A stretch of 64,000 nucleotides of DNA from Phapecoctavirus 536P1. Every line of letters begins with the position of its first letter. The stretch's first letter is position 1. The DNA lies in the sequence record OZ035728.1. One strand, 5' to 3'. A program made the position numbers and the translations under genes. Below the pieces are notes generated by a model, which worked only from the letters and a program-made list of their open reading frames with translations, searched no databases and was not told the DNA's origin. Positions 8,552 through 60,818 of this stretch are shown piece after piece.

Positions 8552-8596
8552 TGAATGCTATCCTATCATAAAATGTTTAATATTGTCAAGCTTTAA

Positions 8597-9190
8597 TTAC
8601 CAAGGAATATCATCTTCTTCCAATCTGGTATCTACTTGAGGTGGACGTGGAACCTTAACCTCTTTCACAAAACGAAGATATGGGAAACGTGTAGCAATTT
8701 TAATAACATGTTTGGCATCTTCTCTAACATCTTTGTGCAAGAAGCAGATCCCTGTTTCCAAGGTTGTTTCAAAATCTTTAGAATAATAACAGTCCTTCCC
8801 ATCAAATGCAGCCTGGCAGATGGACAGATCGAACTCATTTAGAAAGGTTGTCATTACGCTTGGTTCCATAATCATAAGGTTGCAAAGCTGACCATCACGT
8901 TCAAACTCAAAAACGTGTTTAAGACCAGTAACACCTTCATAATTGTCAGAAGCCTCTTTGTTTCCTAGTTTACGAATATTGGTTCCCATTAAAGCAGATG
9001 CAATTAATCCTTGTATTTGTTCTTCAGTCCGATGTGCAGGAAGGGACGTATAGAAATCCAGATCACGTCCAGCAATATCAAGAATACGCCAATCACGAAC
9101 AGCACCGCCAGCCAAGACAGAATTAGGATCAGCGATCTTTAATACGGTAAGAATTTCTTTGGCAATATTGATTTGTTTTGATTTAGTCAT
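8597..9190 (-). CDS. minimal nucleotidyltransferase (Pol-beta superfamily, tRNA CCA-adding-enzyme head-like) with SSB-tip-like C-terminus
   Basis: 197 aa; motif LAGGAVRDW...DIAGRDLDF (G[SG]xVRD ... DxD); C-terminus ...LEEDDIPW resembles SSB tip. Confidence 0.55.
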   Translation of the reverse strand: MTKSKQINIAKEILTVLKIADPNSVLAGGAVRDWRILDIAGRDLDFYTSLPAHRTEEQIQGLIASALMGTNIRKLGNKEASDNYEGVTGLKHVFEFERDGQLCNLMIMEPSVMTTFLNEFDLSICQAAFDGKDCYYSKDFETTLETGICFLHKDVREDAKHVIKIATRFPYLRFVKEVKVPRPPQVDTRLEEDDIPW

Positions 9191-45215: not shown

Positions 45216-45392
45216 ATGTCTGAATTCTTCACAATGGCTTTCTTAGGGATCTATCTGATTATTAGTGCTGTTGGCTTAATCATGTCTCTAATAGAGGAAA
45301 TGGGAATTAAGTGGAATTGTGCATTCGGTATAGCTCTTATGCTCACTCCAGTTTGGATCTACATTTGCAAATCGGTTGAACTAATTGGTTAA
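45216..45392 (+). CDS. small membrane protein
   Basis: 58 aa from internal ATG with SD GGAG; two hydrophobic segments. Confidence 0.5.
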   Translation: MSEFFTMAFLGIYLIISAVGLIMSLIEEMGIKWNCAFGIALMLTPVWIYICKSVELIG

Positions 45393-46005: not shown

Positions 46006-46170
46006 ATGATCTCTTTAGAATCAATAGCTTTTAAGAAAGGGTATACCGCAGGGTTCAAGTTTGGTATGTTTAATAAAGTAAATCCATATTGTCCAATGAC
46101 ACACAAAAAGGAATTCGAAGAATGGGAAGATGGATTTTCTAAAGGCTATCAGGCAAAGGGTTGGTTGTAA
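46006..46170 (+). CDS. hypothetical small protein
   Basis: 54 aa from ATG after SD GAGGAG. Confidence 0.45.
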   Translation: MISLESIAFKKGYTAGFKFGMFNKVNPYCPMTHKKEFEEWEDGFSKGYQAKGWL

Positions 46171-46179
46171 GGAGAGAAT

Positions 46180-46344
46180 ATGATTTTAAACTTCATCATC
46201 AACTTGTGTTTGACATTGGGACTACTTTGTGCAATAGTATCTCCTTTGGTTGGTGAATATTGTTCTGAATTGGCGATGTTTATAGTTCTTGGTGCGGCTA
46301 TTGCTAATATGTTTGTCGCTGCGATTTGTATGTTGTGGGAATAG
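46180..46344 (+). CDS. small hydrophobic membrane peptide (54 aa)
   Basis: SD AAGGAGAG; two predicted TM helices. Confidence 0.45.
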   Translation: MILNFIINLCLTLGLLCAIVSPLVGEYCSELAMFIVLGAAIANMFVAAICMLWE

Positions 46345-46355
46345 GAGGGAAGTTT

Positions 46356-46712
46356 ATGAAAAAATTAATCTTAGCCACATTGCTGGCTACCGTAAGCTTC
46401 ACCACTTACGCTCAAAAATTTGTAGCAGTTAAAACGAATATTGGTAAAGATGTTGTGATCACAGGCAACAAGTTTTACTATACACTTGGGAATGGTGTTC
46501 TAGAAGAGTGCAAAGATGTTGAGGCATATACAGGAAAAGAAGATAACACGGAACGTCCTTTTTATTCGATTATAGCTACTTGCAAAAATGAAATAGTAGC
46601 TATTAAACAATACAAAGATGCACCTGGAGGAGAGTACTTATTAATCAAGAATATTAAGAGTGAAAAAACTGCAAAGTTTACAGTAATTATTTTAAAAGGA
46701 GAAACGTTCTAA
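46356..46712 (+). CDS. secreted protein
   Basis: start at ATG after SD AGGAGG; signal peptide MKKLILATLLATVSFTTYA. Confidence 0.6.
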   Translation: MKKLILATLLATVSFTTYAQKFVAVKTNIGKDVVITGNKFYYTLGNGVLEECKDVEAYTGKEDNTERPFYSIIATCKNEIVAIKQYKDAPGGEYLLIKNIKSEKTAKFTVIILKGETF

Positions 46713-49473: not shown

Positions 49474-50012
49474 GAATAACTGATGAATATGTATTCTTCT
49501 TTTCACATAAAGATGTGTTTAGTAATTGGTATATTGCACCCTTTACAGAAACCGAACCAGGTTACAATCAGACATTTAATTGTGTCGAACAATACATGAT
49601 GTGGCGTAAAGCTTTGCTTTTTAATGACCACAACACGGCACAGGCTATTCTGACTCATAGTTTGATACGAAAAGATGAGAAGATCCAAGCTTATTACAAA
49701 CGTATGGGTAGGGCAGTGTCGGATTTTGATAACAACGTATGGGAAGAGAACCGTGAGCGTATTGTTATGCGAGGTTTATGTTTGAAATATGTACAGAATC
49801 CAGATTTGTATGCAGACTTACACCTTTACCAATACAAAACGTTTGTTGAAGCAAGCCCTTACGATAAGGTTTACGGAATTGGAATGGGGATGTATGAACC
49901 AGGGGTGCTAAACCCTGCTACCTGGAAAGGGCAGAATCTTTTAGGCAAATATCATAATAAACTGATCGAAATACTTTTCCCAGACAAAATACCGCAAAGA
50001 CGATATTTGTGA
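49470..50012 (+). CDS. NADAR-domain protein (YbiA-like N-glycosidase family)
   Basis: 180 aa; FFFSHKDVFSNWY and EQYMMWRKALLF blocks parallel E. coli YbiA FYS...FSNF and EHYFQAxKF; SD AGGAGG. Confidence 0.65.
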   Translation: MRITDEYVFFFSHKDVFSNWYIAPFTETEPGYNQTFNCVEQYMMWRKALLFNDHNTAQAILTHSLIRKDEKIQAYYKRMGRAVSDFDNNVWEENRERIVMRGLCLKYVQNPDLYADLHLYQYKTFVEASPYDKVYGIGMGMYEPGVLNPATWKGQNLLGKYHNKLIEILFPDKIPQRRYL

Positions 50013-50066
50013 TATTTTAACTTTTTTCATTTTTAGAACAAAGGTGTCACTTTGTAGCACAGAAAT

Positions 50067-50103
50067 AAGGCTCCTACAGCACCGTAGAGAGCCTATTATT
50101 TTG
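50067..50103 (+). terminator. probable intrinsic terminator after NADAR gene
   Basis: imperfect GGCTCCTAC...GTAGAGAGCC hairpin followed by TATTATTTTG. Confidence 0.45.
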
Positions 50104-50255
50104 TCCTATACAAACACTTGTCTTTTTCAGTTGGCATTGCTAGGATTCGATCTGGGTGGGTTCCTGAAGGTCTACCAATAAGATTAAAGGTTATCTCAAA
50201 TTCCCACTACCTGTTATCTCAAAAATCCCTCAAATTATTTAAACTTTTTAAGAAT

Positions 50256-50302
50256 TTACAAAAGTGAAAGTTGAAAACCAAAATTTAAAGTTTAGGAAAA
50301 TT
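50256..50302. repeat. 47-bp A-rich direct repeat, copy 1
   Basis: TTACAAAAGTGAAAGTTGAAAACCAAAATTTAAAGTTTAGGAAAATT; about 42/47 identical to copy 2. Confidence 0.6.
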
Positions 50303-50393
50303 ATCTTAAAATGTTAGATACAAAACAAAACTCAAAAGTCAAGGAAAATTTTAAAAATTTTGCGCGCCCACAGTATTTAAAGTTTTTTTGCTT

Positions 50394-50440
50394 TTACAAA
50401 AATGAAAGTACAAAAGCAAAATTTAAAGTTTACAAAAATT
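50394..50440. repeat. 47-bp A-rich direct repeat, copy 2
   Basis: TTACAAAAATGAAAGTACAAAAGCAAAATTTAAAGTTTACAAAAATT. Confidence 0.6.
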
Positions 50441-50455
50441 TTTATGCAGGTGAGA

Positions 50456-50472
50456 ATGAGAAGAGTTCTCAT
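50456..50472. promoter_or_regulatory. perfect palindrome ATGAGAAGAGTTCTCAT (operator-like)
   Basis: 7-bp arms around GAG; shares TTCTCAT half-site with Fur-box-like sites. Confidence 0.4.
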
Positions 50473-50480
50473 GTGGAAAT

Positions 50481-50503
50481 GCAAATGATAATGATTCGCA
50501 TTT
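50481..50503. promoter_or_regulatory. Fur-box-like site (weaker)
   Basis: AAATGATAATGATTCGCATTT; shares TGATAAT core with Fur consensus GATAATGATAATCATTATC. Confidence 0.3.
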
Positions 50504-50540
50504 AAGTTTATAAATGAGATTGATTCTTATTCAATAAGGT

Positions 50541-50569
50541 AAATGATAATCATTCTCATTTAGAGAATG
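50541..50569. promoter_or_regulatory. Fur-box-like palindromic operator
   Basis: TGATAATCATTCTC matches Fur consensus core TGATAATCATTATC at 13/14; continues into palindrome TCATTCTCATTTAGAGAATGA. Confidence 0.45.
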
Positions 50570-50819
50570 ACGCGCAGGGGTGGTGTTTATCTCGCGCTCC
50601 CGTGTCCCCTCGCCATGTAATAAGAATAACAGATCCAGCCAGGAAAGCAAGCGATTATTTTTATCTTTACATTTCTTTACAAATTTATTTTAGACGAGCT
50701 ACCGGCGATCAACCTTCCAACCAGCGCCCTGGTATGTTAGCCCCGCCTTTACGCCGTGGGGTGGCGCTTCCTCTTCTGTATGTAAAACAGTATAAGCCCG
50801 ATCCCTGGGCTTGTCAAGA

Positions 50820-51086
50820 TTATTTTTTGTTTTCTTGCCAGGATAGGACACCTAACCAAAAATGCATATCGCCCCGCGCCCCTGGTGGGATCTTGCTTTC
50901 CCCGCCGCCACTGCAAGCCCATAAATAACCATCAGCGAACGGATCAAAGTTTTCTATTTCTTCCACCTTATGATCGCCCAGGTTGAGAACTGTTTCAGCC
51001 TTTAAGCCCGTTGCGCTTGCTACCTGGTGCACCGTGCCGCCTTGCCAGCCCAATGAGTGCATAAGGTGTAATGTAGTATTTGTCAT
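50820..51086 (-). CDS. hypothetical protein in GC-rich island
   Basis: 88-aa ORF with GC-rich codon usage unlike surrounding genes; weak SD. Confidence 0.35.
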   Translation of the reverse strand: MTNTTLHLMHSLGWQGGTVHQVASATGLKAETVLNLGDHKVEEIENFDPFADGYLWACSGGGESKIPPGARGDMHFWLGVLSWQENKK

Positions 51087-51195
51087 GGTGTCGCCCTTTC
51101 TTTGTTGTGCGCCCTGGTTGGCGCGGTAGAAAGATGATAGCCTTTTCCTTTATATATAGCAAGCAAAAAGAAAATAAAAAAGATTGAAAAAGTGG

Positions 51196-51224
51196 TTGAC
51201 GTTCCTCACCTGGTAGCGTAGTAT
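51196..51224 (+). promoter_or_regulatory. sigma70-like promoter (TTGACG-N17-TAGTAT) heading the cassette array
   Basis: hexamers about 135 nt upstream of ATG 51360. Confidence 0.45.
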
Positions 51225-51359
51225 TCATCTTGTCGAGGGGGGCGAGGCACAACGACAATAAACAACAGGAGGGCGCAATGTAGGACGGGCAAAGGTGAGG
51301 ATCTCCATAATCCACCGTCAACCAACAAAAAACATCATTCATCACCTGGAGTTAAAATC

Positions 51360-51557
51360 ATGGCAACATTGCACATTGTGGCGAAAGCTGGACAAATCAA
51401 CGTAATAGTAAACGGTTTTACTGAGTTCAGTCATCCCCAGGATGATCATGAAACGGTTTTATCTTTCATTGATTCCCTGTTAGAAATGGGAGTCATTACA
51501 GAAGACCAGCACGCTACAAAATGCAAGCGCGTTAATCAAATTGCAGGAATAGAATAA
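51360..51557 (+). CDS. hypothetical small protein
   Basis: 65 aa; first ORF of array. Confidence 0.55.
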   Translation: MATLHIVAKAGQINVIVNGFTEFSHPQDDHETVLSFIDSLLEMGVITEDQHATKCKRVNQIAGIE

Positions 51558-51563
51558 AAACTA

Positions 51564-51626
51564 TTGACAACAAACAACAACCTGATAAGATGTGTCACAT
51601 AGGGCGGCGGAATGGTCCAGCCGCTC
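51564..51626 (+). promoter_or_regulatory. promoter-hairpin cassette A
   Basis: TTGACA-N16-TGaTAAGAT then GGGCGGCGGAATGGTCCAGCCGCTC stem-loop starting about 3 nt after predicted +1. Confidence 0.6.
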
Positions 51627-51649
51627 ACAACAGAAGAGAGATTATAATC

Positions 51650-51922
51650 ATGGCATCATATAGCGCAACAATGATCGTAGCTGGCACCACTGGTAAACCT
51701 ATGAGCGGTGGCGGATCTTTCGCAAATATCAACATTGACGGGCGTTTATCCCTGGACGCAGCGATCACCGTGGCGCGGGAAACATTTAAGAAAGAATGTA
51801 AATTCAATAAACAAGATTATCTCGGTTTTGCTATTGAAAAAACCGCGCGCTTTGTTGATTATAAAAGCCCGAAAATGGTTGATACTACACTAAAAGCGCA
51901 AGATGTAGCGTTTTTGCTTTAA
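51650..51922 (+). CDS. hypothetical small protein
   Basis: 90 aa from ATG after purine-rich leader AGAAGAGAG. Confidence 0.6.
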   Translation: MASYSATMIVAGTTGKPMSGGGSFANINIDGRLSLDAAITVARETFKKECKFNKQDYLGFAIEKTARFVDYKSPKMVDTTLKAQDVAFLL

Positions 51923-51925
51923 GGC

Positions 51926-51980
51926 TTGACATTAACGAATAATTTGTTAATATGTTACATAAAGCGGGAATAGTTCCCGC
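51926..51980 (+). promoter_or_regulatory. promoter-hairpin cassette B
   Basis: TTGACA-N16-TAATAT then GCGGGAA-TAG-TTCCCGC. Confidence 0.6.
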
Positions 51981-51998
51981 TATTTGTAAGGTGGTAGA

Positions 51999-52256
51999 AT
52001 GTTTTACATCAAATTAAAAGGTCACGTGATCGCGTTCAAAGATAACGCTTTTTACAGATTAGCAAAATATGCGTTAATACATCCCCACTATGTTTATATA
52101 AGGGGGCGTGATGAAATAAATATCTTTGATCAAACAACATGCGAGAACATCGAGATCCGCAAGGTTGGCGTACGTGATTATCGTACATCTTTCTACCCTT
52201 GCAAGGATTCAGCAAGTCTTTTTAAAGTATGCCAATTGTTGAAAAAAGGTGGTTAA
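51999..52256 (+). CDS. hypothetical small protein
   Basis: 85 aa. Confidence 0.6.
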   Translation: MFYIKLKGHVIAFKDNAFYRLAKYALIHPHYVYIRGRDEINIFDQTTCENIEIRKVGVRDYRTSFYPCKDSASLFKVCQLLKKGG

Positions 52257-52257
52257 T

Positions 52258-52815
52258 ATGGGCCGCGAATATGTGATCCAGTCTTGGGTAAAACATGAAG
52301 CAGATGATCCGCGCATCATTCCCGATCATCTTATCGATGAATCCACGGGATATAGCGGTGAGCAAATAGGTAACAGATTAGCACGTAGTAACGGCAACGT
52401 AAAAGCGCGTTATGTGCGCCCTGGCTGGCTGGCAAATGGTAACGCTGATTTATCCAGTGCGGAAGATGCGAGCGACGGCGCGAAAGATAATCCTTTGTAC
52501 AAAATTGATCCGGCTTTTCGTGTCCTGGATGAATACCCCAGCAAGATAGCGGCGCTCGATCAGGCCCTGGAAAGTAAGCGCATCACCTGGACCGCTTACA
52601 ACATGGCAAAAAACGTACTTGATGGTAAATTGATTCAAGCTGAAAGGAAATTAGCCAAAATTGCAGCCATAGCCCAGGAGGAAGACGAGGAGACAACGGA
52701 AGAGGAAGAGTACGAAGAGATCCCGCCGTTGTTGTGTGTTGATGCTTTTCCTGATTATCAGCCGACAGAGGAAGAAAAAAGGATTGCACTAGAAAACTTT
52801 GAAAATAGTCTTTGA
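52258..52815 (+). CDS. hypothetical protein with acidic C-terminus
   Basis: 185 aa from ATG after SD AGGTGG. Confidence 0.6.
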   Translation: MGREYVIQSWVKHEADDPRIIPDHLIDESTGYSGEQIGNRLARSNGNVKARYVRPGWLANGNADLSSAEDASDGAKDNPLYKIDPAFRVLDEYPSKIAALDQALESKRITWTAYNMAKNVLDGKLIQAERKLAKIAAIAQEEDEETTEEEEYEEIPPLLCVDAFPDYQPTEEEKRIALENFENSL

Positions 52816-52869
52816 CATATCGCCGCCACTGGCATAATATTTACCACGTAGGGCGGCAATGGTGCCGCT
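52812..52869 (+). promoter_or_regulatory. promoter-hairpin cassette C
   Basis: TTGACA-N17-TAATAT then GGCGGCA-ATGG-TGCCGCT. Confidence 0.6.
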
Positions 52870-52897
52870 CATAGTGAAATTATGCAAGAGGTTTACA

Positions 52898-52993
52898 ATG
52901 ATTAATAAAGAAAATAGCTTGACGGTTGGAACGATTAACGCTATCATTTTCGCCGTTCCATTTTGGGTTGTAGTAGCGGCTATTATTTTCTAA
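52898..52993 (+). CDS. small hydrophobic peptide (31 aa)
   Basis: SD AGAGG; single predicted TM helix. Confidence 0.4.
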   Translation: MINKENSLTVGTINAIIFAVPFWVVVAAIIF

Positions 52994-53002
52994 AAAATAT
53001 TC

Positions 53003-53063
53003 TTGACAACGTTTTTTAATCTGATAAGATGTGTCACATAGGGCGGCGGAATACTTCCCCGCC
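53003..53063 (+). promoter_or_regulatory. promoter-hairpin cassette D
   Basis: TTGACA-N16-TGaTAAGAT then GGCGGCGGAATACTTCCCCGCC. Confidence 0.6.
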
Positions 53064-53084
53064 AAAACAAAAAAGGGTAACACA

Positions 53085-53447
53085 ATGAGCAAGCAAATCA
53101 ATACTATCATGTTTAATCTGGTATCTTTCCGCGATGATATGAAAAATTTACCACGTGAAACGGTTGATATTCATGTTTCAGCTTATCGCGCCCTTATTGA
53201 TATGTTACCGCTAAAACGTGATCAACATGCCGCTAATATGATGCTTAATGCTATGCTTAAAAAGATGATTCAAACGGATCTCACCCTGGCGTATGAGTAT
53301 CAAGGGCGCTTATATGCAACTTACAACAAGGCGGTACCTGGTCTGGGAAGTACCGAAGAGTTGCACGGCTTAAACCTGGATCAAAACACTTGGGATAGTA
53401 TGCGCCGCGTTATGATATGGGCCGAAAGCGGTAAAATTTACGAATAA
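53085..53447 (+). CDS. hypothetical protein
   Basis: 120 aa from ATG after leader AAAAAAGGG. Confidence 0.6.
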   Translation: MSKQINTIMFNLVSFRDDMKNLPRETVDIHVSAYRALIDMLPLKRDQHAANMMLNAMLKKMIQTDLTLAYEYQGRLYATYNKAVPGLGSTEELHGLNLDQNTWDSMRRVMIWAESGKIYE

Positions 53448-53452
53448 AAACG

Positions 53453-53512
53453 GTTGACACTGTTTAAACTTCTGGTATAGTTTACCACATAGGGCGGGAA
53501 GTGGTTTCCCGC
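53453..53512 (+). promoter_or_regulatory. promoter-hairpin cassette E
   Basis: TTGACA-N16-TGgTATAGT then GGCGGGAA-GTGG-TTTCCCGCC. Confidence 0.6.
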
Positions 53513-53535
53513 CAACAATGAAAAAGGTTATCATC

Positions 53536-53901
53536 ATGGCTATTAATATTAATGTTTCCGCTTATGCTACCCTGGCTAACACGGCTAAAATTGAATTATC
53601 CAGCATTGAGGCGGTGCATATTAGCGCCCGTCGCTGGTTTCAACGGTCCTACGGTAACACATATTTTTCTTTAATGGTTGACGTTGAGATCGGCGGTAAA
53701 CTGATCGAGGTGGTTAACGTTCCGTTTCAATATGGCTATGGTGATCATTTTGATACCGTCGCCCTGGAAGAGTTTAGCAAGGTTATCAACCTGGAAGGTA
53801 AAGAGTTTTCAAATTATGCCTACCTTTCCCGTTTTTGCCGTGACAATGGGATCACTGTATACAGTCATGCAAGCGATGTTAAACGTAAAAAAGATCTATA
53901 A
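53536..53901 (+). CDS. hypothetical protein
   Basis: 121 aa from ATG after AAAAAGG leader. Confidence 0.55.
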   Translation: MAININVSAYATLANTAKIELSSIEAVHISARRWFQRSYGNTYFSLMVDVEIGGKLIEVVNVPFQYGYGDHFDTVALEEFSKVINLEGKEFSNYAYLSRFCRDNGITVYSHASDVKRKKDL

Positions 53902-53907
53902 AAAGCA

Positions 53908-53969
53908 TTGACAGCACGAATAAAAAGAGTAAACTGTATTACATAGAGAGCGGGAATACTTCCCGCCTC
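53908..53969 (+). promoter_or_regulatory. promoter-hairpin cassette F
   Basis: TTGACA-N16-TAAACT then GCGGGAA-TAC-TTCCCGC. Confidence 0.55.
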
Positions 53970-53990
53970 ACTGAAAAAGAGATTAATATC

Positions 53991-54230
53991 ATGGCTAAAT
54001 CAAAAATGTTCTTAGGTCACAAAAATAAAACCCATTGGAATGTAAGCCTCTGGATTAATAACGATGAATCATTATATCGGTTGGCGAAAGAATTTATCGC
54101 CGCTAATACTAATCGTAATGATGCTGCGCGGGATATGATGCTTTTTCTGGAACAAACTGGACAAGATAAAACGCCAGACGGTTTCAAATATAGCACTACT
54201 GCGATCCGTGCCGCGATGGTTGGAATGTAA
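53991..54230 (+). CDS. hypothetical small protein
   Basis: 79 aa. Confidence 0.6.
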   Translation: MAKSKMFLGHKNKTHWNVSLWINNDESLYRLAKEFIAANTNRNDAARDMMLFLEQTGQDKTPDGFKYSTTAIRAAMVGM

Positions 54231-54239
54231 TAAAAACAG

Positions 54240-54299
54240 TTGACAACGTTTAAAATTAGTGTAAGATGTATCATATAGGGCGGGAAGTGGTTTCCCGCC
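54240..54299 (+). promoter_or_regulatory. promoter-hairpin cassette G
   Basis: TTGACA-N16-TGTAAGAT then GGCGGGAA-GTGG-TTTCCCGCC. Confidence 0.6.
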
Positions 54300-54320
54300 A
54301 AAACAGAGAGATTAAAGATT

Positions 54321-54548
54321 ATGGCTATCAATATTGTTCGCGTATCCGGCACCGTTGGCACTTCCCAGGTTATTGCAGTTGTAACAAACAAAAAGATTAA
54401 TGATGTATGTGAGATCTTGAATAAGTGGGCTGTTGCTAATTTTGGGGAATATGCAAGCGTCGAGTACATCGAATCCTACCAGGTGCCAACCATCAGCCTA
54501 ACCGATCTCAACGTTGATCGCCTGTTATGCCTGGATGAATTAATCTGA
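54321..54548 (+). CDS. hypothetical small protein
   Basis: 75 aa. Confidence 0.6.
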   Translation: MAINIVRVSGTVGTSQVIAVVTNKKINDVCEILNKWAVANFGEYASVEYIESYQVPTISLTDLNVDRLLCLDELI

Positions 54549-54557
54549 AAAAGATTG

Positions 54558-54620
54558 TTGACACGGGAAAGAAAAAGAGTAAACTGTATTACATCAAGGC
54601 GGCGGAATGGTCCACCGCCT
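54558..54620 (+). promoter_or_regulatory. promoter-hairpin cassette H
   Basis: TTGACA-N16-TAAACT then GGCGGCGGAATGGTCCACCGCC. Confidence 0.55.
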
Positions 54621-54643
54621 AACAAAGAGAAGAGGAAAACACC

Positions 54644-54811
54644 ATGATCACTTTCGCTACCCGTGAAGCCGCTCGCAATGTTGCCCGTAAAGTTAACGCC
54701 GCCAACCTGGGTGCTACGTTTAAAGCACCTGTAAAAGATGAATCAGGAAAATGGATCTTCCCTGGTCTGCGTCACGCTGATAAGCTAGGCACTTTAAGCC
54801 TTAAAAAATAA
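54644..54811 (+). CDS. hypothetical small protein (55 aa), N-terminus MITFA shared with next gene
   Basis: SD-like AGAGAAGAGG leader. Confidence 0.45.
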   Translation: MITFATREAARNVARKVNAANLGATFKAPVKDESGKWIFPGLRHADKLGTLSLKK

Positions 54812-54814
54812 TCG

Positions 54815-54854
54815 TTGACTTTTCGTTATAGCGCCCATCATAAGGCGCTATAGA
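54815..54854 (+). promoter_or_regulatory. atypical cassette I (TTGACT then ATAGCGCC-loop-GGCGCTAT palindrome)
   Basis: -35-like hexamer but hairpin sits where -10 is expected; different stem sequence. Confidence 0.35.
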
Positions 54855-54885
54855 GAAGAGAAACCACTACTAACAAGGAAACATC

Positions 54886-55107
54886 ATGATCACTTTCGCT
54901 ATTGTCGCCGTTGTTGCTGGTCAGGTTTACATAAACGATACATTCACCACAGAAGACAAGGCCGCAGGAGACATAACCGCCGTTTACAATGAGTGCAAGG
55001 CAGTAGAAAGGATGTTAGCGCCTTGTATGCTAATGAGTGAACGCCAGGACGGGATAACAGTATTTACTAACATTGAAACAGGGTACCAAATGGTAGTAAC
55101 AAAATAA
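54886..55107 (+). CDS. hypothetical small protein
   Basis: 73 aa. Confidence 0.55.
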   Translation: MITFAIVAVVAGQVYINDTFTTEDKAAGDITAVYNECKAVERMLAPCMLMSERQDGITVFTNIETGYQMVVTK

Positions 55108-55110
55108 AGC

Positions 55111-55167
55111 TTGACACGGATTTAATTTTCAGTAAACTGTTACACGTAGGGCGGGAATAGTTCCCGC
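55111..55167 (+). promoter_or_regulatory. promoter-hairpin cassette J
   Basis: TTGACA-N16-TAAACT then GCGGGAA-TAG-TTCCCGC. Confidence 0.6.
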
Positions 55168-55185
55168 TAAAAAGAGAGAAAGACC

Positions 55186-55539
55186 ATGAAAGCACAAAAT
55201 ACAATTAAAGAGTACATCCTTGCCGCTATCGATTTTAATGATTATGGTATTACAACCGAAAAAGAGAAGATCGCGGAATTGATGCGCCGTTTTAATTCCG
55301 AGTACTGGTACCCTGATAACCAATCACGTTTTAATTATAGTATTGTTAAAGCACTTGCATCATGGTTACAAGGTTTGCCATCAGATATCAATATCGCTTT
55401 CGAATATTGGGAAATTGATCGCTTGTTAACATCCTGGGGATACATTAAAGAGAATAGCAGCGATGATAAAATCCAACGAGAAAGGGAAAATTATTGGCTT
55501 TATATTGCAGGAGTGATCCTTGCTTGCTCTTATGAATGA
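55186..55539 (+). CDS. hypothetical protein
   Basis: 117 aa. Confidence 0.6.
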   Translation: MKAQNTIKEYILAAIDFNDYGITTEKEKIAELMRRFNSEYWYPDNQSRFNYSIVKALASWLQGLPSDINIAFEYWEIDRLLTSWGYIKENSSDDKIQRERENYWLYIAGVILACSYE

Positions 55540-55545
55540 TAAACC

Positions 55546-55600
55546 TTGACAATTTTACAAAACAGTTTAAATTAACAATATAGCGGCAATGGTGCCGCTC
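55546..55600 (+). promoter_or_regulatory. promoter-hairpin cassette K
   Basis: TTGACA-N16-TAAATT then GCGGCA-ATGG-TGCCGC. Confidence 0.5.
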
Positions 55601-55618
55601 ATATGAAGAGGAAACAAA

Positions 55619-55765
55619 ATGAAGACATCTAATCGCGCAGAAAAAATTCAATCTTCCAAGATCCGCAAGGCCTGGAACGAGGAAGTGATCCGCAAAGGCG
55701 ACAAGCGCAATAAAACAAAGCGCGGGAAGAGTGACAAATATAATTGGATGGATTTAGAGGATTAA
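55619..55765 (+). CDS. small basic protein (48 aa)
   Basis: Lys/Arg-rich; followed directly by terminator. Confidence 0.45.
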   Translation: MKTSNRAEKIQSSKIRKAWNEEVIRKGDKRNKTKRGKSDKYNWMDLED

Positions 55766-55772
55766 CATAACA

Positions 55773-55799
55773 AGGGCGCACCAAGCGCCCTTTCTTTTT
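55773..55799 (+). terminator. intrinsic terminator (GGGCGC-ACCAA-GCGCCC + T tract), copy 1
   Basis: identical hairpin and T tract recur at 60792. Confidence 0.75.
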
Positions 55800-55820
55800 A
55801 TATGTAGAGGATAAACAAAG

Positions 55821-56006
55821 ATGACTTTAAGCGAGCTTAAAACAGCCTACAACGCAACATTAAAAATAGCCGTGCGTTACCGTGATGCGTATGGTTTTAT
55901 CGCGCAGGGCGTGATCCTGGGCTTTTCTGACGATGGTTTGATCTATGTTGATGCACATCATAACAAGGTAAAACCTGAAAACGTCATTAGCATAAAATAT
56001 CTTTAA
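55821..56006 (+). CDS. hypothetical small protein
   Basis: 61 aa; SD GAGGA. Confidence 0.55.
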   Translation: MTLSELKTAYNATLKIAVRYRDAYGFIAQGVILGFSDDGLIYVDAHHNKVKPENVISIKYL

Positions 56007-56012
56007 AAGTGG

Positions 56013-56072
56013 TTGACACCATAACCGGACCTGTTAAACTGTATTACATCAGGCGGGGAATAGTTCCCCACC
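56013..56072 (+). promoter_or_regulatory. promoter-hairpin cassette L
   Basis: TTGACA-N16-TAAACT then GGCGGGGAA-TAG-TTCCCCACC. Confidence 0.55.
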
Positions 56073-56091
56073 ATACAAAAAGGTAAATATT

Positions 56092-56298
56092 ATGATCACC
56101 GCAAAACAAGAGAAAATCATTATCGACGTTGCAGCCGTTGCCGCTATTGCTATTATTGGATCTTATTATGATACCCGTTTCCCGTCGGCTATGCATGAGG
56201 TCGCCGCCGTTGCATCAGTTGGCGTACTGTTTTACGTTGGTAAACGCTATTTATCACCAATGATTAACAAGCTGACACCGTGGAAAAATAAAGGTTGA
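56092..56298 (+). CDS. small membrane protein
   Basis: 68 aa with hydrophobic segment. Confidence 0.55.
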   Translation: MITAKQEKIIIDVAAVAAIAIIGSYYDTRFPSAMHEVAAVASVGVLFYVGKRYLSPMINKLTPWKNKG

Positions 56299-56353
56299 TC
56301 CTGTTTTATATTGTGTTATAGTTATCGTGTAGGGCGGCAATGGTGCCGCGCCC
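56295..56353 (+). promoter_or_regulatory. promoter-hairpin cassette M
   Basis: TTGATC-N16-TATAGT then GGCGGCA-ATGG-TGCCGCG. Confidence 0.5.
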
Positions 56354-56369
56354 CTTTGAGGATGCAATC

Positions 56370-56654
56370 ATGAGTAAAGCTAACACCGTGCTAATGTTTT
56401 CCCTGATTAATGATCCCGCTTACTTGTCCAACATGACGCAGGAGGGTAACACATTAACGGCAACATTCACCAATAAGCTTGACCGAGTGATCATCATCTC
56501 ACTGAAAACAGTTAGTAAAGGCTTTTACTCGTTAGCTTATCATTGGATCACCGATACCGATGAGACAAGCCAGGACTATAGCGCCCCTTTCCCTGAATCA
56601 ATGGCACGGGAGATCATCGCCGCCGTTGTAAATGATGGTTTGTTTACTGAATAA
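56370..56654 (+). CDS. hypothetical protein
   Basis: 94 aa from ATG after SD GAGGA. Confidence 0.55.
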   Translation: MSKANTVLMFSLINDPAYLSNMTQEGNTLTATFTNKLDRVIIISLKTVSKGFYSLAYHWITDTDETSQDYSAPFPESMAREIIAAVVNDGLFTE

Positions 56655-56672
56655 AATAATTTAGAAAAAGGC

Positions 56673-56729
56673 TTGCAATCATTTTGAGATAGTGTATATT
56701 TAATTCATAGGGCGGCGGGAATAGTTCCC
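56673..56729 (+). promoter_or_regulatory. promoter-hairpin cassette N
   Basis: TTGCAA-N16-TATATT then GGCGGCGGGAA-TAG-TTCCC. Confidence 0.5.
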
Positions 56730-56752
56730 AAAGCAAACGAGAGGATTACACG

Positions 56753-56872
56753 ATGAGCAAGTACACAGTAGAATACACGGTAGAAAATCCGGCAGTATCC
56801 GAAGGTAAAAAGATGACATTTGCCATCAATATAATCGCTTTCGTTGTCACTATCTTATCAATCATCTTATAA
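56753..56872 (+). CDS. small hydrophobic peptide (39 aa)
   Basis: SD GAGAGGA; C-terminal TM helix. Confidence 0.45.
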   Translation: MSKYTVEYTVENPAVSEGKKMTFAINIIAFVVTILSIIL

Positions 56873-56882
56873 GGTGCACACC

Positions 56883-57044
56883 ATGAAAACAACAGATATT
56901 ATCAAAGAGATCGCCCTTGCCGCTGGCGTTGAGATCGAGGAAGTGATCGCGCTCAATCTTACAGAAAACGATCTGCGCAACTATGAAGCGGAAAGCGTGA
57001 AAGCAAGCGGCGCGGTCCTGGTATATGATCCGGCTAACAAGTAA
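56883..57044 (+). CDS. hypothetical small protein (53 aa)
   Basis: ATG 10 nt after stop of preceding peptide gene. Confidence 0.45.
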   Translation: MKTTDIIKEIALAAGVEIEEVIALNLTENDLRNYEAESVKASGAVLVYDPANK

Positions 57045-57053
57045 GGGGATAAC

Positions 57054-57203
57054 ATGAATCCGAAAGATATGCAAGCATGGAAAGGGTACGACGATCTAAG
57101 CGCCTTGCGCAATAAGTCAAGCCGTAACTTTAGACGGTTGGAAGCAAAGAAAAAGAAAAATAGTTTGACAAGTCCGCCTAGTCTGATAATATATATCTTG
57201 TAG
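57054..57203 (+). CDS. hypothetical small basic protein (49 aa)
   Basis: SD AAGGGGA; 3' end overlaps cassette O promoter. Confidence 0.35.
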   Translation: MNPKDMQAWKGYDDLSALRNKSSRNFRRLEAKKKKNSLTSPPSLIIYIL

Positions 57204-57222
57204 GGCGGCAATGGTGCCGCTC
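57165..57222 (+). promoter_or_regulatory. promoter-hairpin cassette O
   Basis: TTGACA-N16-TGaTAATAT then GGCGGCA-ATGG-TGCCGCT. Confidence 0.6.
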
Positions 57223-57241
57223 ACAAGAAGAGAGAAAAATC

Positions 57242-57526
57242 ATGAAAATCACAAAAAGCCTAACTAATTATGCAGCACGTCGCGGATTATGTTTAACCGT
57301 TGAAAACTTAGGGAAAGAAGACTTTTTGTGTTTTTGGGAGCTTGAAAATGATTGCGAGTGGATGTTTTCTTATTCTATCTGCGAAGATCAAAACGGTTGT
57401 TTGTTAACCTGGCGCGGTAATATCTGTTTACCGGAAGAAATTAAAGAAGAGTTACCAGGTACGATCATGACAGAGAGACAGCTTAAGGAAGTGATCAATT
57501 TTGTAGGGCAAAACATTAAAAAATAA
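57242..57526 (+). CDS. hypothetical Cys-containing protein
   Basis: 94 aa. Confidence 0.6.
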   Translation: MKITKSLTNYAARRGLCLTVENLGKEDFLCFWELENDCEWMFSYSICEDQNGCLLTWRGNICLPEEIKEELPGTIMTERQLKEVINFVGQNIKK

Positions 57527-57527
57527 T

Positions 57528-57590
57528 TTGACAGTAGGCAAACAACGTAGTAAAGTTTATTACATAGAGCGGCGGAATGGTCCACCGCTC
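57528..57590 (+). promoter_or_regulatory. promoter-hairpin cassette P
   Basis: TTGACA-N17-TAAAGT then GCGGCGGAATGGTCCACCGC. Confidence 0.55.
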
Positions 57591-57611
57591 ACAACAGAAG
57601 AGAAACAAATC

Positions 57612-57782
57612 ATGATCCCGACTATGTTTTATGTATCGCGCAAAGGTCACAATATTTTTTGGTCTGAAGATTTAAATGAAGCTATGACGTTTGCCCGTGA
57701 TCGTGTTGCTATCGGTGGCGTTAACATCACCGTAACCGATGAAAATGGCATTGAATACTATAACGGCGACGATGAAGAATAA
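57612..57782 (+). CDS. hypothetical small protein (56 aa)
   Basis: ATG after leader AGAAGAGAAACAAATC. Confidence 0.5.
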   Translation: MIPTMFYVSRKGHNIFWSEDLNEAMTFARDRVAIGGVNITVTDENGIEYYNGDDEE

Positions 57783-57788
57783 TTAATG

Positions 57789-57813
57789 AGGCGGGGGGAG
57801 TATTCCCCGCCGT
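57789..57813 (+). promoter_or_regulatory. leader stem-loop Q without recognisable promoter
   Basis: GGCGGGGGGAG-TAT-TCCCCGCC directly upstream of SD of gene 57831. Confidence 0.4.
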
Positions 57814-57830
57814 CAATAAAGAGGTAAATC

Positions 57831-58100
57831 ATGAAAATATCATTGGACGTTGCAATCAAGGCCATCGAATCCGGTTACATCCTGGTAAAAGATGATAAGG
57901 CTAAAATAGTGCATCATGTTAACAAGGAAACAGGCGAAAGCATGATCACATATAAAGCCGCCTACTTTCTCCAATCAGTAGCAGATCCGCGCGTACAACG
58001 CCAGGTTACGGCGGCTATTGCTAAAAAATTATGTGCTTTACAGGGTGCAAGTTTTAACGAGATTGCCCCGTGTTTTGAGTGGTCAAGCTTGAAAAAATAA
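57831..58100 (+). CDS. hypothetical protein
   Basis: 89 aa; SD AGAGG. Confidence 0.6.
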   Translation: MKISLDVAIKAIESGYILVKDDKAKIVHHVNKETGESMITYKAAYFLQSVADPRVQRQVTAAIAKKLCALQGASFNEIAPCFEWSSLKK

Positions 58101-58101
58101 T

Positions 58102-58163
58102 TTGACAACAATTATAAATCGGGTAGAATGTATTTCGTAGGGCGGGGCAATAAGGCAACGCCC
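58102..58163 (+). promoter_or_regulatory. promoter-hairpin cassette R
   Basis: TTGACA-N16-TAGAAT then GGGCG...CGCCC stem with long loop. Confidence 0.5.
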
Positions 58164-58181
58164 ATTAATGAGGGTAGAATC

Positions 58182-58286
58182 ATGTTAGAGAAAATTTTCA
58201 CGGTCGTAGTAGTGGGCCTGGCGTTATCGGTTGGAGTAGTTGCAACTATGGCTAATATGATCCTATCTTCCCACGGTATCGGCTAA
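58182..58286 (+). CDS. small hydrophobic peptide (34 aa)
   Basis: SD GAGGG; single TM helix. Confidence 0.4.
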   Translation: MLEKIFTVVVVGLALSVGVVATMANMILSSHGIG

Positions 58287-58300
58287 AAGAGAGACACAAC

Positions 58301-58687
58301 ATGAAAACAGAAATCATTATTGAAATCATCAACGGCTATAAAGAAGCCTTTATTTTTGCTGAATCAGCAAGGGATCATGAAGGTAATTTTATTGATAACT
58401 TAGACGATTATGATTTTTCTCCTAGCGCGGACGAACGGATCGCCCAGGATGTAACAGCCTTTATTAATGCTAATCTTGCCGCTATCTCTGAGGCAATGAG
58501 CGACGGCGCAACAGCCATCCAGATCGGGAGTGATTTACATTTTACCCGTAACGGTCACGGCATAGGCTTTTGGAATCGCCCTGAAATATACACTACTAAC
58601 ACGGCGAACCGCCTAACAAATGCCGCTAAGTTTATGCCTATTGTGTCGGCTTACATTGGTGAAGATAATTTGATTTATATTGAATAA
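58301..58687 (+). CDS. hypothetical acidic protein
   Basis: 128 aa; leader AAAGAGAGACACAAC. Confidence 0.6.
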   Translation: MKTEIIIEIINGYKEAFIFAESARDHEGNFIDNLDDYDFSPSADERIAQDVTAFINANLAAISEAMSDGATAIQIGSDLHFTRNGHGIGFWNRPEIYTTNTANRLTNAAKFMPIVSAYIGEDNLIYIE

Positions 58688-58693
58688 AAAGTA

Positions 58694-58751
58694 TTGACAC
58701 AGATCGCCAGTGTGCTAATATTTACCACGTAGGGCGGCAATGGTGCCGCTC
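58694..58751 (+). promoter_or_regulatory. promoter-hairpin cassette S
   Basis: TTGACA-N16-TGcTAATAT then GGCGGCA-ATGG-TGCCGCT. Confidence 0.6.
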
Positions 58752-58770
58752 ACTGTAAAAGGTAAACATT

Positions 58771-58962
58771 ATGAAAACTATCACCTATCTGGAATCTAAT
58801 AACATGTTTTTCGCCCCCGTTGATGAAATCATCGAAGCATTAAACAACGAGGAAGGGATCAAAGGTTTATCTTATAGCCAACTTTTAGGAATGGTTGCAG
58901 CAAATGAGGAGCTTGCTTACTATATTGAAAATTTTGATGAAGCTGTAATCTTTACAAAATAA
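58771..58962 (+). CDS. hypothetical small acidic protein
   Basis: 63 aa. Confidence 0.55.
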   Translation: MKTITYLESNNMFFAPVDEIIEALNNEEGIKGLSYSQLLGMVAANEELAYYIENFDEAVIFTK

Positions 58963-58964
58963 TC

Positions 58965-59021
58965 CTTGATCTAATCTCTCAGATAACTTATATTTAATGC
59001 GTAGGGCGGCAATGGTGCCGC
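58965..59021 (+). promoter_or_regulatory. promoter-hairpin cassette T
   Basis: TTGATC-N16-TATATT then GGCGGCA-ATGG-TGCCGCC. Confidence 0.5.
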
Positions 59022-59040
59022 CGATAATGAGGAAAACAAA

Positions 59041-59340
59041 ATGGAAACTATCGCTATTGTTACCGTAGAAAAACTGGTTGTTGGTGATGTATTCGCGTTA
59101 ATGGTGCCTAACAGCAGCAAGCTGGGCGCTTATGAAGTAATGGATCATAAAAATGAATCATTTGGCGACGGTTGCACAATGGCGGTAAAATCTTTAAAGG
59201 ATGGAATCATCCGCCAGGCTAACTGGCACAAAGGGAATCAAGTCGGTTTAATATCAGCTAATTTCTTGCCAGAAGAGCAAACATTAGATCAACTATCAGG
59301 CGGTAAGACGTTAGCCGAACTACTGGAAACAGCGATCTAA
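59041..59340 (+). CDS. hypothetical protein
   Basis: 99 aa. Confidence 0.6.
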   Translation: METIAIVTVEKLVVGDVFALMVPNSSKLGAYEVMDHKNESFGDGCTMAVKSLKDGIIRQANWHKGNQVGLISANFLPEEQTLDQLSGGKTLAELLETAI

Positions 59341-59347
59341 TCGACAA

Positions 59348-59364
59348 GGGGCGGCAACGCCCCC
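59348..59364 (+). promoter_or_regulatory. leader stem-loop U (GGGGCG-GCAA-CGCCCC, GNRA-type loop)
   Basis: hairpin 30 nt upstream of ATG 59394; no promoter hexamers seen. Confidence 0.4.
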
Positions 59365-59393
59365 ATTAAACGCAATAGGAAGAGGATAGACAC

Positions 59394-59678
59394 ATGAAAA
59401 AGACGATCGCAGTAGTTGCCCTGGTTGTTGGTATTAACGCGCCTGTAATGGCGAAAGAGTTGCCAGAATCCATCACGTTAACCGATATTAACGCAGTGAA
59501 CCGGATCGGTGTTAATTATCGCCTATGCCTTGCCGCTAAAACTTTCCAGGACGGCACAACAGAGTACTACGGATTCGAGGGTGTTCGGTGCGGTGAGCTT
59601 GCACGCGACCTTAAGGAAGATCCAGACCTTGAGGCCATACCGATGACCGTAAACGGTAAAGCCCAGGTAAACCGCTAA
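59394..59678 (+). CDS. secreted/periplasmic protein
   Basis: signal peptide MKKTIAVVALVVGINAPVMA; SD AGGAAGAGGA. Confidence 0.6.
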   Translation: MKKTIAVVALVVGINAPVMAKELPESITLTDINAVNRIGVNYRLCLAAKTFQDGTTEYYGFEGVRCGELARDLKEDPDLEAIPMTVNGKAQVNR

Positions 59679-59680
59679 CC

Positions 59681-59815
59681 ATGAGAAAGGTAATCATCAC
59701 AATGGGGATCGTAGTAGCAACGCTGGCGCTTATTCCCTTCCTGGTTGAATATGTGCTGATTAATGTTGTCCTAGTAGTCAGTGACCTATTGGAAACGGTT
59801 GGCACCTGGTTTTAA
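59681..59815 (+). CDS. small membrane peptide (44 aa)
   Basis: ATG 2 nt after upstream stop; two hydrophobic stretches. Confidence 0.4.
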   Translation: MRKVIITMGIVVATLALIPFLVEYVLINVVLVVSDLLETVGTWF

Positions 59816-59823
59816 AAATAAAT

Positions 59824-59853
59824 AAACAGGACTTGTTTTTGTCCTGTTTTTTG
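59824..59853 (+). terminator. intrinsic terminator
   Basis: ACAGGAC-loop-GTCCTGT hairpin followed by TTTTTTG. Confidence 0.65.
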
Positions 59854-59991
59854 TTATACTTATTAAACGGGCGGCACTTGGGAGCAGGTGAAGATAATCA
59901 CCGGAAGATCCCGCTATATATCGATAGCTAATACCTATCAAACAACAAAACATCAAAGAGATAAACTATTAAATCTTTACAATCCTACATA

Positions 59992-60020
59992 TTGACCGAT
60001 AAATCACAACAGTTTAATAT
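59992..60020 (+). promoter_or_regulatory. sigma70-like promoter (TTGACC-N17-TAATAT), no leader hairpin
   Basis: about 50 nt upstream of ATG 60069. Confidence 0.45.
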
Positions 60021-60791: not shown

Positions 60792-60818
60792 AGGGCGCAC
60801 CAAGCGCCCTTTCTTTTT
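60792..60818 (+). terminator. intrinsic terminator (GGGCGC-ACCAA-GCGCCC + T tract), copy 2; closes cassette array
   Basis: identical to terminator at 55773. Confidence 0.75.

Follow-up and report, generated by a model that had tools for sequence, protein, structure and literature searches.

Introduction

Bacterial small membrane proteins such as AcrZ, MgrB, and MgtS are regulators, and each works through its binding to a membrane protein of larger size (PMC7267776, PMC11539335, PMC12648545). Here we analyze five open reading frames (ORFs), called A to E, that encode short hydrophobic peptides in a 64,000-nt stretch of DNA from Phapecoctavirus 536P1 (sequence record OZ035728.1; the whole stretch is referred to as the window). 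B, C, D, and E lie between positions 52,898 and 59,815, and A lies upstream of them. Like the bacterial regulators, the products of B to E are shorter than 50 amino acids (aa) and have a single transmembrane (TM) helix, whereas A has two helices. The window peptides share no sequence relation with AcrZ, MgrB, or MgtS (the best Pfam matches, for example YbgT_YccB, reach 11 bits against a cut-off of 26). They also differ from these regulators in being phage-encoded: D and the gene pair SP94-E, in which SP94 is the 94-aa protein encoded directly upstream of E, are absent from E. coli genomes.

The setting of these genes can be compared with the promoter-early stem-loop (PeSL) cassettes in the hyperplastic regions of T4-type phages, where a sigma-70-like promoter, a GC-rich stem-loop, and a Shine-Dalgarno (SD) site lie between small ORFans (PMC2839356). 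PeSL arrays gain and lose cassettes between relatives, and a stem-loop downstream of the -10 box is one described subclass (PMC2839356). The array in the window has the same architecture, with a sigma-70-like promoter, a GC-rich stem-loop, and an SD site repeated between small genes. Its content also changes cassette by cassette: in a presence/absence matrix of relatives, a 71-aa gene that is absent from the window is present in phAPEC8, and a 63-aa gene and the genes for B, C, D, and SP94-E vary among relatives. In contrast to the T4-type arrays, the lineage is Stephanstirmvirinae, the repeat has a different sequence, and the hairpins lack a T-run.

The type I toxins Hok, TisB, Ibs, Ldr, and ShoB of E. 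coli are hydrophobic single-helix peptides of 19-50 aa. The window peptides are likewise small, hydrophobic, and membrane-spanning, but they have no antisense RNA partner, no occluded SD, no chromosomal copies, and no family match. Near B, the minus strand has a single promoter-like site (53009-52982), which mirrors the -35 box of the next cassette. A further parallel comes from phage T4, which makes the small membrane protein Imm. T4 also makes Spackle, an early small periplasmic protein that protects the infected cell (PMC7677548). The pairing of compartments by Imm and Spackle is resembled by E with SP94 and by A with the 118-aa secreted protein encoded after it, timing and localization being predicted for the window proteins. 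There is no homology to either T4 protein: we found no Pfam match, and a PDB fold search with a model of SP94 did not retrieve Spackle. Lastly, the antiholin ORF52 of the chi-like Salmonella phage BSPM4 is, like the window peptides, short and encoded away from the lysis genes, and it is early and membrane-located (PMC11657625). It differs from them in its length of 64 aa and in combining an N-terminal TM segment with a soluble domain; it shares no sequence relation with them, and its phage belongs to another group.

Evidence that the small ORFs are genes

We screened 44.0-60.2 kb of the window for ORFs of 25-60 aa that start with ATG, reach a Kyte-Doolittle average of at least 2.3 over 17 residues, and carry an SD-like motif. 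The screen returned six ORFs on the plus strand and none on the minus strand, compared to a mean of 0.02 and a maximum of 1 in 300 shuffles, which argues against chance ORFs. All five ORFs that had been pointed out from a first reading of the letters (the original prediction) are present and strongly hydrophobic, and the best 17-residue window is 2.4-2.8 in each. The original prediction described each as a peptide of 31-44 aa with one TM helix and an SD. The length and the single helix hold for B, C, D, and E, whereas A has 54 aa and is hydrophobic in two segments (residues 1-21 and 32-52). A, B, C, and D have good SD sites at 7-8 nt; for E, none is usable. In its AlphaFold model, E is a single continuous helix spanning residues 2-43 (predicted local distance difference test, pLDDT, of 93).

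The window is DNA of a Phapecoctavirus (phAPEC8-like) coliphage. A megablast search with 52.0-60.2 kb matched 248 phage records, the top matches at 94-97% identity across more than 90% of the query, and nearly all are Escherichia myophages of ~150 kb in Stephanstirmvirinae, genus Phapecoctavirus (type phage phAPEC8). The layout of the window, big minus-strand blocks up to 44 kb and then a plus-strand block of short genes, fits this genus. Searched singly, A, B, C, D, and E have DNA matches in 64, 107, 62, 197, and 164 phage records, respectively, at 76-100% identity; the matches to D and E extend to Vequintavirinae.

To compare reading frames, we used 17 loci, fetched from 16 phages, and took the frames homologous to A to E from them. 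The frames of A to E are open in 3-15 distinct relatives, down to 76% DNA identity, and all fetched copies are intact: D at 34 aa (15 distinct copies), E at 44 aa (11), C at 39 aa (6), and A at 54 aa (3). B is intact in 10 fetched relatives at 31-35 aa, with a conserved N-terminal core followed by one of three alternative hydrophobic C-terminal ends. The remaining two sense frames are closed in every fetched copy. Such retention of amino-acid sequence, hydrophobicity, and ORF length (only B varies) across two subfamilies speaks against a non-functional origin of the ORFs.

The ratio of nonsynonymous to synonymous differences (pN/pS), summed against the window copy, is 0.10 for A, 0.17 for D, 0.27 for B (24 codons), 0.35 for E, and 0.41 for C. 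Counting against a coding reading of the sense strand, the antisense frame that shares third codon positions is also open in nearly all copies, and for C and E its pN/pS is similar and fails to separate the two frames. An antisense by-product could look like this, and the annotators of phage AV123 did choose the antisense frame of one such ORF. However, it is these shared positions that make pN/pS fail as a strand discriminator for C and E, and by the logic of the genetic code the antisense frame is open automatically, as every sense NTN codon yields an antisense codon that starts with A and is never a stop. The quality of the replacements differs between the strands: the mean BLOSUM62 score of variable columns is +0.57 in sense (conservative) and -0.64 in antisense (radical). 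Given this replacement quality, the start and SD signals, and the orientation of the array, the strand is settled for C and E. Taken together, we regard A to E as very probably real genes for membrane microproteins.

Conservation within the peptides follows discrete motifs. In D, ATM(A/S)NMILSS(H/N)GIG is kept; the C-terminal half (ATMANMILSSHGIG) is almost invariant, and the N-terminal half differs in rV5. In E, P19-F20, Y24, and VLVVSDL are kept, and in B the core LTVGTINAI..VP.W. C has a tail-anchored layout, that is, a 20-residue polar N-terminus (KYTVEYTVENPAVSEGKK) followed by a TM segment that runs up to the stop codon. Among homologs the polar N-terminal motif of C is kept and the TM sequence is replaced (KYTVEYTVENPA; PVQYSVINPA in JohannJBalmer; KVEYTTENPV in Seunavirus SSE121 gp136). 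Based on the homologs in JohannJBalmer and Seunavirus SSE121, the C family spans three genera. The JohannJBalmer locus (~8556-8780) holds tandem ORFs for micro-TM proteins, the annotated 31-aa bas62_0126 and then an unannotated 39-aa divergent homolog of C. Gene gp136 of SSE121 (locus 112-228; 38 aa, annotated as 'membrane protein') has both the N-terminal motif and the layout of C.

Comparison with relatives also bears on the translation starts. Codon 1 of E is ATG or GTG in every fetched copy. A 37-aa version of E that begins at the ATG at 59702, the start used in phAPEC8, was rejected, as this position is Leu in rV5, slur16, HdK5, and WPEC4. Similarly, a 44-aa version of B from the ATG at 52859 was rejected, as that ATG lies in the loop of a repeated stem-loop and has no SD. 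From the alignments and signals the starts are settled at 44 aa for E, not 37, and at 31 aa for B, not 44. The ATG of E is located 2 nt past the stop of the SP94 gene, and the two genes overlap as ATGA in relatives (Mt1B1_P17); by this arrangement, E is predicted to be translationally coupled to SP94.

The promoter and stem-loop array

Between ~51.5 and 59.1 kb, the gene map shows genes of 31-185 codons alternating with gaps of 75-99 nt. Each gap contains TTGACA, a spacer of 16-17 nt, and TAnnnT, followed by a GC-rich hairpin and then an SD site; nine full cassette elements were aligned, and such an element stands in front of nearly all genes here. The hairpin octamer TAGGGCGG has 12 copies in the window compared to 0.71 expected (51600, 52849, 53039, 53490, 54276, 55147, 56330, 56708, 57201, 58138, 58730, and 59002; array 51564-59040). 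A promoter scan of the plus strand gives about twenty matches of 10-11/12, and the phAPEC8 record labels these promoter sites 'host dependent promoter'. Transcription is inferred to start 3-5 nt upstream of the hairpin, whose predicted fold leaves the SD unpaired. Because the hairpins lack a T-run and would form at the 5' end of the predicted transcript, they may serve to stabilize the mRNA from this end or to bind proteins rather than to terminate transcription.

The cassettes differ in how the microgenes are placed. B is the sole ORF of its cassette, which lies between the promoters at 52812 and 53003 and is entirely given over to this 31-codon gene. The promoter of C is followed by a degenerate copy of the stem-loop repeat (TAGGGCGG at 56708) with a weak fold (z -1.1). 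D is preceded in FV3 by the same leader as in the window. A strong terminator follows SP94-E in the window, in phAPEC8, and in FV3, and the phAPEC8 record has a terminator annotated at the equivalent site. In Certrevirus, a related group, a region rich in short ORFs that carries such promoters is termed a 'likely early gene region' (PMC7344957). Near-consensus sigma-70 promoters, 5' stem-loops, and exposed SD sites, together with the relatives, imply that A to E would be transcribed by host RNA polymerase in the first minutes of infection. With early-type promoters and translation signals in place, the view that these are genuine small membrane-helix genes inside a cassette array is borne out.

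Gene order across relatives ties some of the microgenes to larger partners. Wherever a fetched locus has SP94 or E, the two genes are neighbors (11/11), separated by 2 nt or overlapping as ATGA. In the Vequintavirus phages FV3, rV5, HdK5, and slur16, SP94 and E share an operon with D and the gene for a 71-aa soluble protein (order D, 71-aa gene, SP94, E); in FV3, this operon is bounded by a single 5' hairpin leader and a terminator. Compared to this operon, the unit in the window has lost the 71-aa gene, and three other genes, two of which have promoters of their own, break it up. The linkage of D to the 71-aa gene was not found beyond Vequintavirus in Certrevirus CR3, F1M1E, or Seunavirus SSE121; in Certrevirus and Seunavirus the 71-aa gene occurs without D. 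A to E are already catalogued and are ordinary for a phage early region, and the modestly new point is the D / SP94 / E operon linkage across two subfamilies. This conserved operon of D, the 71-aa gene, SP94, and E is a small, well-defined experimental target.

Proposed role and alternatives

We propose that A to E are inner-membrane microproteins that the phage would make early, B, C, D, and E as one helix and A as a two-helix hairpin, and that they may act by binding specifically, through helix-to-helix contacts or a motif, to a larger envelope protein encoded by host or phage. E most probably works with SP94, the putative periplasmic product of its coupled gene, and D would ancestrally have been part of the SP94-E operon. 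C may be tail-anchored, with its conserved motif VEYT.ENP displayed on the cytoplasmic surface of the membrane. The role would be takeover or protection of the infected cell at the level of the envelope, for example superinfection exclusion or the blocking of a membrane-associated host function. For this proposal as a whole our confidence is evenly balanced. Binding to a partner is favored because conservation sits in discrete motifs, because E (and ancestrally D) is tied to a secreted protein, and because characterized bacterial small membrane proteins act in this way, as AcrZ does with AcrB (PMC11539335, PMC7267776). Non-specific pore formation or lysis is less likely than partner binding.

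Several points weigh against this proposal. D occurs without SP94-E in phi92, JohannJBalmer, AV123, and UPEC06, so D and E are not obligate partners. We found no functional, transcriptomic, or proteomic literature on the early genes or families of these phages and no homology to a characterized family in Pfam, NCBIfam, PADLOC, or PHROGs. The AlphaFold model of SP94 (pLDDT 71, beta-sheet plus helix) gave no Foldseek match in the PDB at an E-value of 0.001 or below; lacking an informative fold match, SP94 provides nothing that specifically supports an exclusion function. The best-scoring candidate in that search, the RNase H of HIV RT (E-value ~0.015, TM-score ~0.3), was rejected as meaningless and offers no functional lead. 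Finally, small toxins also show motif conservation, so the motifs of the window peptides leave room for a toxin role.

The best-surviving alternative is that A to E are membrane-damaging host shut-off toxins, which would insert in the inner membrane, dissipate the proton motive force, and bring host metabolism to a halt early in infection, as type I toxins and further small killer proteins of phages do. Their size, hydrophobicity, and single-helix layout match this class, early-type promoters lie upstream, and the single-TM BSPM4 protein ORF52 (64 aa) permeabilizes membranes on over-expression (PMC11657625). We nevertheless consider this unlikely. No toxin-family similarity was found in Pfam or NCBIfam, and D and SP94-E, the genes searched for, have no copies in 5,426 complete E. 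coli genomes. In contrast to type I toxins, the peptides have accessible SD sites, and the predictions show no mRNA fold that would repress them. Immediate depolarization of the host would presumably harm a phage with a long cycle. Bulk membrane damage also needs no motifs outside the hydrophobic core, such as the polar N-terminus of C or the SSHGIG tail of D.

A role in lysis timing, either as antiholins or holin modulators that bind the phage holin or as small holins, seems slightly less plausible still. A holin-like function is one of the generic suggestions of the original prediction, next to membrane-targeting toxins and inhibitors of host membrane proteins. BSPM4 ORF52 gives a role in lysis timing a precedent: its gene lies apart from the lysis cassette, and this small protein with one TM segment is made before the holin, binds it, and delays lysis (PMC11657625). 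Given that precedent, early expression and a remote location are compatible with a lysis-timing role. Class II holins have a two-TM layout and a size close to that of A, which would suit A. The window peptides, however, do not have a holin-type charged tail (C-termini -AAIIF, -SIIL, -SSHGIG, -ETVGTWF, and -CMLWE); all five end within the hydrophobic segment or a few residues past it, and the only charged tail, that of E, is acidic. No endolysin, spanin, or holin family was found among 14 neighboring products in PHROG and Pfam comparisons, where the matches were only to PHROGs of unknown function and where lysozyme, amidase, and spanin Pfam domains were absent. The peptides have no sequence relation to known holin or antiholin families, and five separate families for a single task would be unparsimonious. 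Holins are expected to be expressed late, and the consensus sigma-70 promoters of this region, regarded as early in papers on relatives, argue for early transcription. On these grounds a holin-like role is disfavored, an antiholin-type role less so.

That the ORFs are non-functional, as chance ORFs in leaders, upstream ORFs serving the expression of the next gene, or antisense by-products, is highly improbable: C, D, and A do sit 11-15 nt 5' of the next gene, where coupling is possible, but nothing follows B within its cassette and a terminator comes directly after E, and the conservation and strand evidence given above points the other way.

Returning to partner binding at the envelope, a bolder version, which we think improbable, is that D, SP94, and E would make up an unrecognized envelope module of two microproteins and a secreted protein that guards the freshly infected cell, for example against superinfecting phage or membrane-based host defense. 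In Vequintavirus the module would form a single operon, which cassette insertions would have divided in phAPEC8-like phages, and C would capture a host target via VEYT.ENP. If the proposed roles are true, they would matter for the rV5-, phi92-, and phAPEC8-like phages in therapy cocktails and in the BASEL reference collection. The early 'dark matter' of these phages probably holds factors that decide superinfection, host takeover, and defense evasion.

Annotation in related phages

Each of A to E is annotated in some GenBank relative, and four have full-length matches in PHROGs v4: A to phrog_27459 (E-value 1.4e-38), C to phrog_10979 (3.1e-22), D to phrog_14631 (2.1e-22), and E to phrog_16005 (1.3e-28). 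B has no match in PHROGs v4. The families of A, D, and E are labeled 'unknown function' and that of C 'membrane protein', in the moron/host-takeover category. Catalogued phAPEC8 entries for these genes are G377_gp016, gp259, and gp248. In this type phage, A is annotated at 138473-138637, C is G377_gp259 ('membrane protein'), D is unannotated, and the entry for E has 37 aa from the non-conserved internal ATG. B is annotated as Mt1B1_P17 gp031 and as bas62_0109; E is rV5 ORF170 and FV3_00157, and D is FV3_00160. Another GenBank entry among these catalogued families is bas62_0133.

To estimate how often the genes are annotated, we sampled records evenly down the hit lists. Of the annotated records in these samples, ~26/27 list the gene for A, 30/37 that for C, ~19/35 that for B, 8/21 that for D, and at least 11/28 that for E. 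That annotation usually misses such peptides is therefore only partly right: about half of the records of relatives skip B, D, and E, which are sometimes annotated on the wrong strand, but A and C are mostly annotated and A, C, D, and E are in PHROGs. Five or more microgenes in the early region of a well-sampled coliphage group are supported as real, with corrected starts.

Individual records show how such genes are misread. At the AV123 locus, a minus-strand coding sequence (CDS, 2039-2230) is annotated over the plus-strand frame of the B homolog (~2130-2237), that is, the homolog is called antisense; here, the antisense frame that stays open opposite a hydrophobic ORF has been taken for a gene. 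In PsgM04F, B is fused to an upstream frame that begins within the hairpin. Between the hairpin and the B homolog, PsgM04F (~3190-3273) and phiWec181 (same cassette, minus strand) contain an additional hydrophobic ORF of 27 aa (MSTTSLFFAINFIPGFRAALEIILWTL). This ORF is unannotated in phiWec181, and in PsgM04F it is inside a CDS that starts at a GTG in the hairpin.

Searches of large protein sets with E, A, and SP94 gave no distant relatives and no bacterial contexts. E has 29 close clusters, all from phage, and a profile search against 1.84 billion representatives returned 3 clusters (50% identity). For A, a set of 5.8 billion proteins has a single cluster, which bears the name 'TMhelix containing protein'. 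The search with SP94 gave 41 clusters, almost all of them 80% or more identical, and 3 IMG/VR loci. Pfam, NCBIfam, and PADLOC gave nothing above cut-off for the five peptides and nine neighboring products.

Neighboring genes and other features of the window

The coordinates of the microgenes, their neighbors, and their signals are collected in Table 1. The 118-aa gene after A co-occurs with A in phAPEC8 and nepoznato. The 53-aa gene comes directly after C in 7/7 fetched loci with a close C homolog, and the 128-aa gene follows D, or D and the 71-aa gene, in relatives. Two further small membrane ORFs are absent from the original prediction. The 58-aa ORF, the sixth one returned by the screen, is present in phAPEC8 and nepoznato at 97-98% identity, and the 68-aa ORF is present in 8 relatives.

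Table 1. Coordinates of the small membrane ORFs, neighboring genes, and sequence signals in the window
Feature	Position	Strand	Description
Further small membrane ORF	45216-45392	+	58 aa, two hydrophobic segments; phrog_22639 (E-value 1.5e-42)
ORF A	46180-46344	+	54 aa, two-helix hairpin; AAGGAG at 46169-46174
118-aa protein gene	46356-46712	+	12 nt 3' of A; phrog_5474; signal-peptide-like N-terminus MKKLILATLLATVSFTTYA, read from the sequence
Tandem repeat	50483-50567		29-nt unit, 2.9 copies; in the 50000-51600 stretch, with locally GC-rich sequence
88-aa ORF	50820-51086	-	May correspond to Phi92_gp224 (minus strand) by size and position
B promoter, sigma-70-type	52812-52840	+	TTGACA, 17-nt spacer, TAATAT; 10/12
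B leader stem-loop	52851-52870	+	Repeat core GGGCGGCAATGGTGCCGCTC; -17.7 kcal/mol, z -2.06, SD unpaired
ORF B	52898-52993	+	31 aa, MINKENSLTVGTINAIIFAVPFWVVVAAIIF; AAGAGG 7 nt 5' of ATG
Further small membrane ORF	56092-56298	+	68 aa, two hydrophobic segments, own cassette; phrog_30003 (E-value 1.6e-46)
C promoter-like site	56673-56700	+	TTGCAA, 16-nt spacer, TATATT; 9/12
ORF C	56753-56872	+	39 aa; GAGAGG 8 nt upstream
53-aa soluble protein gene	56883-57044	+	11 nt 3' of C; phrog_35944
D promoter, sigma-70-type	58102-58129	+	TTGACA, 16-nt spacer, TAGAAT; 11/12
D leader stem-loop	58140-58163	+	-16.8 kcal/mol, z -2.78
ORF D	58182-58286	+	34 aa, one TM segment; GAGGG 7 nt upstream
128-aa gene	58301-58687	+	15 nt 3' of D; phrog_1915; Pfam matches sub-threshold only
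SP94, 94-aa protein gene	59394-59678	+	Signal-peptide-like N-terminus, two cysteines; phrog_9845; upstream partner of E
ORF E	59681-59815	+	44 aa, one long helix, N-terminal MRK; last gene before terminator
Intrinsic terminator ending the SP94-E unit	59824-59856	+	9-bp stem and T-run; -15.4 kcal/mol, z -4.86

No tRNA genes were found in the window, and a scan of its entire length found no Rfam families. The stretch at 50000-51600, between two plus-strand gene blocks, is without a convincing plus-strand gene. Past the terminator of E, ~170 nt (59824-59996) are ~90% conserved in all relatives and partly in Vequintavirus. Folding of these 170 nt is not above shuffles (z -0.68) and they have no Rfam match; they contain a TATACT box and a GGGCGGCAC element, and no ORF lies between this stretch and 60069. 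Further downstream, after a terminator at 60792-60810, the segment 60800-62400 is AT-rich with few ORFs (GC content of the window 0.357) and is 88-97% conserved in several relatives; it may be a regulatory or terminal genome region. The database matches include 17-19 records labeled 'Campylobacter phage' and one record each for a 'Pseudomonas', an 'Acinetobacter', and a 'Klebsiella' phage; these share >85-96% identity with the coliphages, and their host labels look doubtful.

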